Position numbers and translations under genes: made by a program. From a virus (Duplodnaviria; Heunggongvirae; Uroviricota; Caudoviricetes), in IMG/VR virus record IMGVR_UViG_2622736468_000007: DNA of 28,446 nt. The stretch is one strand, 5' to 3'. Numbering within the stretch: position 1 is the stretch's first letter; every line of letters begins with the position of its first letter. Positions 13,754 to 15,510 of the stretch are shown in pieces. Below the pieces are notes generated by a model. It made no database searches and was not told the origin of the DNA. It worked only from the letters and a program-made list of their open reading frames with translations.

Positions 13754-14014
13754 ATGGATTACACAAATCTACCAAAACAAACTTTTGCTGATTTAATCGC
13801 ACTCAGGCAAGCAGTCGTAGCTCTAATCAACTTGTTGCCGGAGAAGGAAAAGGAATTAGTTAAAGCGCTTCTTAACAGAACTGCCGCCGATTTTTCATCA
13901 TATCCACTGACAGATGACCTTGCGGACCTTCCTGAATTAATTGCAGCGTCCGCCATTAAGCTTACTGAAGAGATTTACCCTCCTCAAAAATCTTCACAAA
14001 ATTCCTGCGAGTAA
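13754..14014 (+). CDS. hypothetical protein, opposite-strand moron inside lysis cassette
   Basis: ATG at 13754 preceded by AGAGGTG; 86 aa helical-looking product; followed by an intrinsic terminator. Confidence 0.45.
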   Translation: MDYTNLPKQTFADLIALRQAVVALINLLPEKEKELVKALLNRTAADFSSYPLTDDLADLPELIAASAIKLTEEIYPPQKSSQNSCE

Positions 14015-14291
14015 CTTCAATGCAATAATCGTAAAACGCCGCAAACTGCTCATCGCGGCGTTTTTTTTCATCTTCAGAAGGGATCAGCACCGACAATTTT
14101 TTATTCAGATCAGCGACGCTGCCCTCCAGTTTTTCAATGGGCGATTCAATATCATCTTTTTCTGACCGCAATGCCGTCGGTGGCGTCTTCAGAGAACCAG
14201 TAATTCTTCCCGGTAGCTTTCCTTTGTAGGTTATCCACACATTCTGCGCCTCTAAAATTATGGGGCGCTTTTCCGGCGACTGCTCATCCCC
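13962..14291 (-). pseudogene. 3' part of the IS1-interrupted gene located between holin and endolysin
   Basis: Frame of ORF 13962..14240 stays open upstream to the IS1 junction and is in frame with the 5' part across the 9-bp duplication. Confidence 0.5.
14035..14068 (+). terminator. intrinsic terminator
   Basis: Stem AACGCCGC/GCGGCGTT with 12-nt loop followed by T8. Confidence 0.5.
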
Positions 14292-14306
14292 GGTGATGAC
14301 TCCAAC

Positions 14307-14702
14307 TTACTGATAGTGTTTTATGTTCAGATAATGCCCGATGACTTTGTCATGCAGCTCCACCGATTTTGAAAACGACAGTGACTTCCGTCCCAGCCTT
14401 GCCAGATGTTGCCTCAGATTCAGGTTATGCCGCTCAATGCGCTGCGTATATCGCTTGCTGATAACGTGCAGTTCTCCCTTCAGGCGTGATTCATAAAGCG
14501 GCCAGCCATCCGTCATCCATACCACGACCTCAAAGTCCGACAGCAGGCTCAGAAGACGCTCCAGTGTGGCCAGAGTGCGTTCACCGAATACGTGCGCCAC
14601 AACCGTCCTCCGAATCCTGTCATACGCGTAAAACAACCAGCGCTGGCGTGATTTAGCGCCGACGTAACCCCGCTGTTCGTCCATTTCAGCGCAGACAATC
14701 AC
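14307..14702 (-). CDS. insB: IS1 transposase InsB
   Basis: 131-aa ORF matching IS1 InsB. Confidence 0.9.
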
Positions 14703-14728
14703 ATCACCGCCCGGTTGTATGCGCTAGG

Positions 14729-15004
14729 TTACCGACTGCGGCCTGAGTTTTTTAAGTGACGTAAAACCGTGTTGAGGCCAACGCCCATAATGCGTGCACT
14801 GGCGCGACATCCGACGCCATTCATGGCCATATCAATGATTTTCTGGTGCGTACCGGGCTGAGAGGCGGTGTAAGTGAACTGTAGTTGCCATGTTTTACGG
14901 TAATGAGAGCAGAGATAGCGCTGATGTCCGGCAGTGCTTTTGCCGTTACGCACCACGCCTTCAGTAGCGTAGCAGGAAGGACATCTGATGGAAATGGAAG
15001 CCAC
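14729..15004 (-). CDS. insA: IS1 InsA
   Basis: 91-aa [26 protein letters not shown]... zinc-finger InsA. Confidence 0.9.
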
Positions 15005-15059
15005 GCAAGCACCTTAAAATCACCATCATACACTAAATCAGCAAGTTGGCAGCATTACC

Positions 15060-15290
15060 CTCATCCCCTACACATAACCCGGCAGCAACATCCAGGAATA
15101 CCTGTCTGATTCTCATTCTGGCTGCTGCCTCATAAAACTCCAGCGCGGCACCTTCAACACGGTCCAGCGAGATGTCCAGGTCAAAAATTTCACCGTCAAA
15201 GCGTTTTTTGTCCCTTAATGCTACAGTTACCGCAACTTTATTCTCAAAATTGCGGATCCCTTTCACAATCAGTTCATAGTTTTGTGTCAT
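15060..15290 (-). pseudogene. 5' part of YdfR-like (DUF1327-type) gene interrupted by IS1
   Basis: MTQNYELIVKGIRNFENKVAVTVALRDKKRFDGEIFDLD...; RBS GGGGAGAG upstream of ATG at 15290; ORF-track tail ...GNAANLLI is read-through into IS1. Confidence 0.6.
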
Positions 15291-15294
15291 TGAA

Positions 15295-15510
15295 TTACTC
15301 TCCCCGTGCAACCTTACGCTTGTCTTCTTTAATCTTGAAATAAAGGTTTGTCAGGTACGTCAGCAAGCCAAATACCAGACTACCCAGCACACCGATTGCA
15401 GCCCACTGTGACGGAGTTACTTTATCGAGTAACTGCAATGCCCAGAAACCAGCATTATCAGCCGATGTGCCATAGGCGATACCTGTTGTTAACTTATCCA
15501 TTGATTTCAT
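15295..15510 (-). CDS. class II holin (phage 21 S-type pinholin)
   Basis: 71 aa [28 protein letters not shown]...; two TM segments; pairs with SAR endolysin. Confidence 0.85.

Follow-up and report, generated by a model that had tools for sequence, protein, structure and literature searches.

The window, a stretch of 28,446 nucleotides, carries an IS1 element inserted into codons 75–77 of a ydfR-family gene. We regard it as highly probable that the target was a catalogued allele of 183 amino acids (aa), lying in a Qin-like lambdoid prophage remnant, and that the insertion abolishes the full-length protein, with a polar effect on the downstream genes presumed. The event is an ordinary IS1 reaction, in which 9 bp of the target are duplicated. 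The case is itself an ordinary one, an IS hit in an already known gene variant of a decaying prophage in a laboratory strain whose genome has been sequenced, because hundreds of E. coli genomes, as well as viable phages, already have the gene uninterrupted. Judged from profile and database matches, the long form is a member of phrog_2091, a catalogued family that NCBI names 'YdfR family protein', and is not peculiar to the present genome.

Insertion site and reconstructed gene

The IS1 element occupies positions 14292–15059 on the minus strand (768 bp, boundaries set by script), with insA running in the same direction as ydfR. Perfect copies of the 9-bp sequence CTCATCCCC directly abut the element on either side, at 14283–14291 on the left and at 15060–15068 on the right; two fixed positions would match over 9 bp by chance with a probability of ~4e-6. 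In minus-strand orientation the duplicated bases are GGG GAT GAG and encode, in frame, G75-D76-E77, the right-hand copy forming these codons within the 5′ part of the gene. The interrupted gene lies on the minus strand with a class II holin on one side and a lysozyme on the other. Its 5′ part (15060–15290, minus strand) comprises codons 1–77 (MTQNYEL...CVGDE) and its 3′ part (13962–14282, minus strand) codons 78–183 plus the stop codon (QSPEKRP...EEGKSLQ), which appears in the six-frame list of open reading frames (ORFs) as a 92-aa ORF at 13962–14240. In the same list the 5′ ORF runs from 15311/15290 down to 15033, and its end (15033–15059, minus strand) is encoded by IS1, which contributes GNAANLLI and a stop to a predicted product of 85 aa.

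In-silico excision of IS1 together with one copy of the duplication yields a single ORF of exactly 183 aa, with its ATG at 15290 and its stop at 13962–13964. An earlier note on this DNA had proposed an IS1 insertion between holin and endolysin, a duplication equal to three in-frame codons (GDE), a frame open on both sides and a reconstructed ORF of about 183 aa. The script-set boundaries with both copies located, the Pfam holin and lysozyme matches on the flanking ORFs and the outcome of the excision bear out this description. Of the span 13962–15311 given for the gene, the stop end stands; the right-hand end does not, since 15311 corresponds to an upstream TTG while the homologues share the ATG at 15290 (MTQNYEL...). 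The 69-nt empty site (reconstructed as 30 + 9 + 30 nt) is present exactly in E. coli CFT073, and empty sites such as those of CFT073 and PhiR63_1 contain CTCATCCCC only once. The disruption falls at the end of the N-terminal domain that the structural model described below predicts for the 183-aa protein.

The IS1 element

The terminal inverted repeats of the element are complementary at 18 of 23 positions. On the minus strand, insA (14729–15004) encodes 91 aa, the A6C frameshift motif lies at 14747–14753 (element position 307) and the remainder of the insB′ frame spans 14307–14702. Genes called in the identical element of CP014197.1 match the Pfam models Zn_ribbon_InsA, HTH_Tnp_IS1 and DDE_Tnp_IS1. 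The element agrees with the IS1 family in its length (768 bp, against ~768 bp), its imperfect inverted repeats of ~23 bp, its insA followed by insB′ in the −1 frame with A6C and its 9-bp target duplication. The isoform in the window differs in having an in-frame TAG in the insB′ frame (14724–14726, minus strand), nine codons past the frameshift site. With this TAG an uninterrupted InsAB′ transposase frame, needed for autonomy and not for family membership, is absent from the copy, which is very likely non-autonomous; because of the stop it is probably immobile unless transposase is supplied by another copy. At several positions the insA product presumably departs from canonical IS1A. The nearest IS1 copies elsewhere in E. 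coli are 99.3–99.5% identical, occur in few genomes only and carry the same TAG (L015, L016); RefSeq labels them 'programmed frameshift; internal stop'. Since these relatives occupy different sites, it seems that the stop-bearing sublineage still transposes, the transposase presumably being provided by other copies. The one flank checked among the relatives at other sites has its own 9-bp duplication, CATTTTGGT.

Intact and interrupted alleles

The uninterrupted allele does exist in related genomes, where the earlier note had suggested that it be sought, for example in CFT073 and in the phages PhiR63_1 and 2H10. When matches at 80% or more coverage of the 1,184-nt query are counted, 279 of the 5,426 complete E. 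coli genomes have the uninterrupted locus, CFT073, APEC O1 and S88 among them; identity reaches 99.2%. In CFT073 no stop interrupts the 183 codons that follow from the shared ATG, and the ORF is listed as 190 aa when counted from an upstream TTG. Two phage genomes contain the intact gene (PhiR63_1, 96.2% aa; 2H10, 95.6%), and in PhiR63_1 it is annotated as a 183-aa coding sequence (XSB43285.1) between holin S and lysozyme R. Under the name 'YdfR family protein', the protein database contains clusters of 183 aa, the one cited numbering 681 members, as well as a form of 176 aa that occurs on 463 contigs. The frame is retained in divergent 183-aa alleles of 79–86% identity. Among the PHROGs, the phrog_2091 profile is 183 positions long and is matched over positions 1–183 of 183 (E 8.7e-112).

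The exact 85-aa truncated protein is called in two public NCBI assemblies, CP014197.1 and GCA_901482365.1, with an identical IS1. CP014197.1 is 100% identical to window positions 12033–18290 (about 6.3 kb), and CP014197 has been named as the genome of E. coli MRE600 (PMC12851939). A search of the 5,426 complete E. coli genomes for the same IS1 junction gave no match. A single record reached a coverage of the junction query of 80% or more and was rejected, as its match consists of two separate pieces 730 bp apart. IS copies are often sites of misassembly, and the apparent insertion could on that ground be taken for an assembly or chimera artefact, of which no direct sign was seen. The perfect 9-bp duplication exactly flanking a full-length element renders this scarcely credible, as does the identical structure in two assemblies that were deposited independently of each other, a closed chromosome being one of the two. 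A genuine insertion into the 183-aa allele is the reading retained here.

For CFT073 and 2013C-4282, the RefSeq/PGAP entry for the intact allele is a pseudogene of 112 codons, labelled 'missing C-terminus' (L001 3579–3914; L002 3579–3914). Elsewhere, in phage PhiR63_1 among other records, the same protein is entered as a plain 'YdfR family protein'. The present case matters little beyond correct annotation, the handling of the intact 183-aa allele in RefSeq being inconsistent; the halves at 13962–14282 and 15060–15290 should be annotated as one IS1-disrupted ydfR-family pseudogene and not as two small ORFs.

Modular organization of the YdfR family

Residues 1–112 of the reconstructed protein match Pfam DUF1327 (PF07041) over profile positions 1–92 of 93 (E 9.5e-41; 138.4 bits against a cutoff of 25). 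Its location, in a lambdoid lysis cassette and flanked by an S21-type holin and a lysozyme, likewise agrees with DUF1327 membership, and the same cassette order is seen in CFT073, K-12, PhiR63_1, PhiR5_1 and the loci of the 296-, 211- and 114-aa forms. Members of the family measure 103, 114–116, 176/183, 211, 268 and 296 aa; the DUF1327 core is common to all of them, the C-termini are mosaic and the indels that separate the forms are multiples of three. The 114–116-aa forms have residues 1–112 in common with the 183-aa protein, with a breakpoint at aa 112 in both alignment and pairwise DNA mapping. The 211-aa form shares residues 1–139 and, after a 28-residue indel, is near-identical to the end. 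In the 296-aa form residues 1 to ~150 and 155–164 are in common, followed by a domain of ~130 residues. The breakpoint with K-12 YdfR lies at aa ~67–70.

The earlier note had left room for a 3′ part lacking homology to any protein, or for homologues with a stop near the junction. The 3′ part is homologous to the 183-, 176-, 211- and 296-aa forms, and a stop near the junction is found in none of the aligned homologues; nor do the intact homologous loci show a stop or frameshift anywhere in codons 78–183. An exhaustive HMMER search with the C-terminal 106 residues retrieved 29 relatives only, among 1.84 billion representatives. One of the proteins carrying this region, P0123 (181 aa), has an unrelated N-terminus (MKTLFVTVGPFCGRV...) followed by the same C-terminal ~70 residues and the end ...FEEGKSIQ. 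Another, P0129 (209 aa), contains no DUF1327 and starts with the homologous coiled-coil segment; in both P0129 and P0134 a standalone gene with its own start begins with the homologue of the C-terminal module. The Logan contig ERR11440797_19244 (L018, positions 48–1151) carries a holin, then the 209-aa P0129 and then a separate 75-aa DUF1327 gene, so that the module order is reversed. Pfam searches on the C-terminal half, the standalone P0129 and P0123 gave sub-threshold coiled-coil-like matches only. Nine matches to the motif EKLEGSV..L in P0135, a 622-aa repeat protein, were judged to reflect coiled-coil or low-complexity resemblance and were set aside.

Because P0123 has the module behind an unrelated N-terminus, and P0129 and L018 as separate genes, the DUF1327 core and the C-terminal module are to be seen, on these alignments, as independent units that occur separately, fused, or fused and truncated. 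The family as a whole can thus be described as a modular one, with a DUF1327 core of ~72–112 residues and interchangeable C-terminal segments. The suggestion of a longer variant or a fusion before the insertion is borne out, since the homology of K-12 YdfR extends only to residue ~70 and intact 183-aa alleles are common; both terms apply at the level of the family and neither is new in the present genome.

The C-terminal region and the convergent ORF

By the Nei-Gojobori method, and with few differences throughout, pN/pS is ~0.2 for codons 1–70, 0.5–0.9 for codons 71–112 and ~0.5 for codons 113–150, the values for codons 71–150, like that of the convergent ORF described below (~0.65 on 13 differences), resting on <25 differences. 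In the AlphaFold2 model, built on a 20-sequence alignment, residues 1–72 have block pLDDT values of 67–83, with three predicted strands and a helix at 50–73. Confidence is <50 for residues 73–146 and 171–183, and two weakly supported helices are predicted at 125–142 and 147–181. Foldseek comparison of the model with the PDB gave no match with E <0.1. As the model is confident only for residues 1–72, no fold-based function is assigned.

A convergent ORF of 86 aa (13754–14014, plus strand; phrog_2572, WP_001306174.1 in RefSeq) runs into the 3′ end of the ydfR-family ORF, with an overlap of 53 bp. The authors of PhiR5_1 labelled this convergent ORF 'DUF1823', a label that a Pfam search did not recover. 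Residues 113 to ~164 of the reconstructed allele are common to the 296-aa form, whose breakpoint lies next to the stop codon of the convergent ORF; the 183-aa protein therefore ends in ~19 residues encoded antisense to this ORF. A hairpin at 14033–14068, with a stem of 10–12 bp followed by T8 on the plus strand and by TTTTACGATTATT on the minus strand, sits inside codons ~148–159 of the ydfR-family gene, where it encodes EKKRRDEQFAAF. Direct folding gives dG values of −15.4 (plus) and −22.1 (minus) kcal/mol, with z −3.2 and −4.2. The consensus terminator scan, with a loop range of 3–8, did not list this hairpin, probably because its loop is too long for that range. The hairpin resembles a terminator of the plus-strand ORF. 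The five-codon stretch KRRDE, which forms one arm of the hairpin, is absent from the 296-aa form, and that form has no convergent ORF.

These features bear on whether the 183-aa ORF is a functional unit at all. The DUF1327 core alone might be functional, with residues ~113–183 a decayed remnant of the 296-aa form, whose frame has stayed free of stops by chance and continues into the antisense of the adjacent gene, in which event IS1 would have hit a pseudogene. Such decay would agree with the PGAP call of the intact allele, the apparently relaxed constraint past codon 70, the low model confidence past residue 72, the overlap of the last ~19 codons with the convergent ORF and the terminator-like hairpin inside the coding sequence, and many alternative C-termini are known, including a 75-aa standalone core. 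Against this, 279 complete genomes, viable phages and a PHROG profile of 183 positions all have the same length of 183 aa and the same C-terminal sequence, and the frame is kept in divergent 183-aa alleles of 79–86% identity. The C-terminal 70 residues moreover recur with the same end behind the unrelated N-terminus of P0123, their homologue starts standalone genes (P0129, P0134), and the forms differ by indels in multiples of three. We consider a decayed C-terminus rather unlikely on balance, and the interrupted gene is treated in what follows as a 183-aa allele of the family.

Lysis cassette and state of the prophage

The cassette is read on the minus strand in the order holin, ydfR-family gene, endolysin and rzpQ. 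The upstream gene encodes a class II (S21-type) holin of 71 aa (15295–15510; Pfam Phage_holin_2_1, E 1.2e-32). Downstream of the insertion lie a lysozyme-type, rrrQ-like endolysin (13107–13640; Pfam Phage_lysozyme, E 4.4e-24; rrrQ in homologous loci) and, as the last gene and in the spanin position, an rzpQ-like DUF2514 protein (12613–13110). IS1 insertions are classically strongly polar, so the insertion probably breaks the coupling of late-promoter transcription and translation to the endolysin and spanin genes. The full-length 183-aa protein would be lost, and transcription of the late operon, should it ever occur, could still yield an 85-aa product with the whole DUF1327 core.

The window is a Qin-like lambdoid prophage that extends from an integrase, by way of a Q antiterminator, csp genes, the lysis cassette and a terminase, to tail genes. 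The prophage is heavily degraded, carrying a split terminase and elements of the IS3 and IS66 families. The terminase large subunit (gpA) is divided into two overlapping ORFs, of which 4657–5298 encodes the first part of the ATPase domain and 3197–4660 the rest together with the nuclease domain; a tail tube gene (2133–2951) follows close downstream. The terminase abuts the IS3-family element, which has an ORF with an rve domain (5511–6401) and a small upstream ORF (6398–6724). The IS66-family element, at ~8.1–10.4 kb, has a tnpA-like gene (10022–10423), tnpB (9678–10025) and a transposase (8090–9628). Portal and capsid genes, which are present in the closest relative, are not among the long ORFs of the window. 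A serine recombinase of the resolvase/invertase type adjoins a tail-fibre assembly gene (window positions 614–1204 and 1302–1877), the usual layout of an invertible tail-fibre segment.

The phage was probably non-viable before the insertion, because the terminase is split and head genes are apparently missing. The IS1 insertion would then be one more disabling hit in a prophage with other IS elements and a split terminase, and it may lack a phenotype because the prophage is already defective. The position of the element between holin and endolysin, in the orientation of the operon, might instead suggest that it was selected for disarming the lysis cassette, by parting the holin from the endolysin and spanin genes, and was no neutral hit in dead DNA. 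The several other inactivating lesions of the prophage and the presence of the interrupted allele in two related assemblies could be read in the same sense. Nothing in these data separates selection from drift, however, and the absence of the junction from all 5,426 complete E. coli genomes searched means that there is no recurrence; the split terminase and the apparently missing head genes had probably already left the phage non-viable. Selection for disarming is consequently judged improbable, and an ordinary insertion into an already defective prophage is preferred.

Comparison with known YdfR loci

K-12 YdfR (b1555, P76160, 103 aa, cryptic prophage Qin) shares with the 183-aa protein the DUF1327 core at residues 1 to ~70, with ~87–90% nucleotide identity, and the holin and endolysin neighbours. 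Identity between the two proteins is 68% overall and higher within residues 1–70. In K-12 a tail of 92 bp leads straight into rrrQ, whereas the window has 657 bp instead, encoding ~113 different residues and the convergent 86-aa ORF. Residues 1–72 of K-12 YdfR are reported to bind the N-terminal (catalytic) half of RNase E (PMC13232886, 2026). The truncated 85-aa product retains this core and, by analogy, could be a candidate for the same binding. A wider proposal would make the modular YdfR proteins late-phage factors, in which an RNase E-binding, possibly RNA-binding, DUF1327 domain is combined with rapidly exchanged coiled-coil or C-terminal modules that also stand alone and are sometimes in reversed order. 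The terminator of the convergent gene would then lie within the coding sequence. The 183-aa form would be no relic but a functional specificity variant, and in MRE600 the 85-aa product left by IS1 could still act on RNase E. This proposal is speculative and we give it little credence. The modular map, with a core of 72–75 residues able to stand alone and with swappable C-termini, may nevertheless help to follow up the RNase E binding.

The 296-aa form (phrog_1085, P0049) and the reconstructed protein are collinear over two stretches, up to residue ~150 and over residues 155–164, with ~92% nucleotide identity. It differs in its extra C-terminal domain of ~130 residues and in lacking both the KRRDE segment of five codons and the convergent ORF. 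The closest correspondence is to the 183-aa protein of PhiR63_1, 2H10 and phrog_2091, which has the same length and the same position between holin S and lysozyme R. The PhiR63_1 locus also has the same flanking genes, cspF/cspB and rzpQ/cspI/ynfN, and its protein shows 96% aa identity. The window copy differs from it in the interruption by IS1 at codons 75–77 and in seven substitutions, all of them within residues 4–74.
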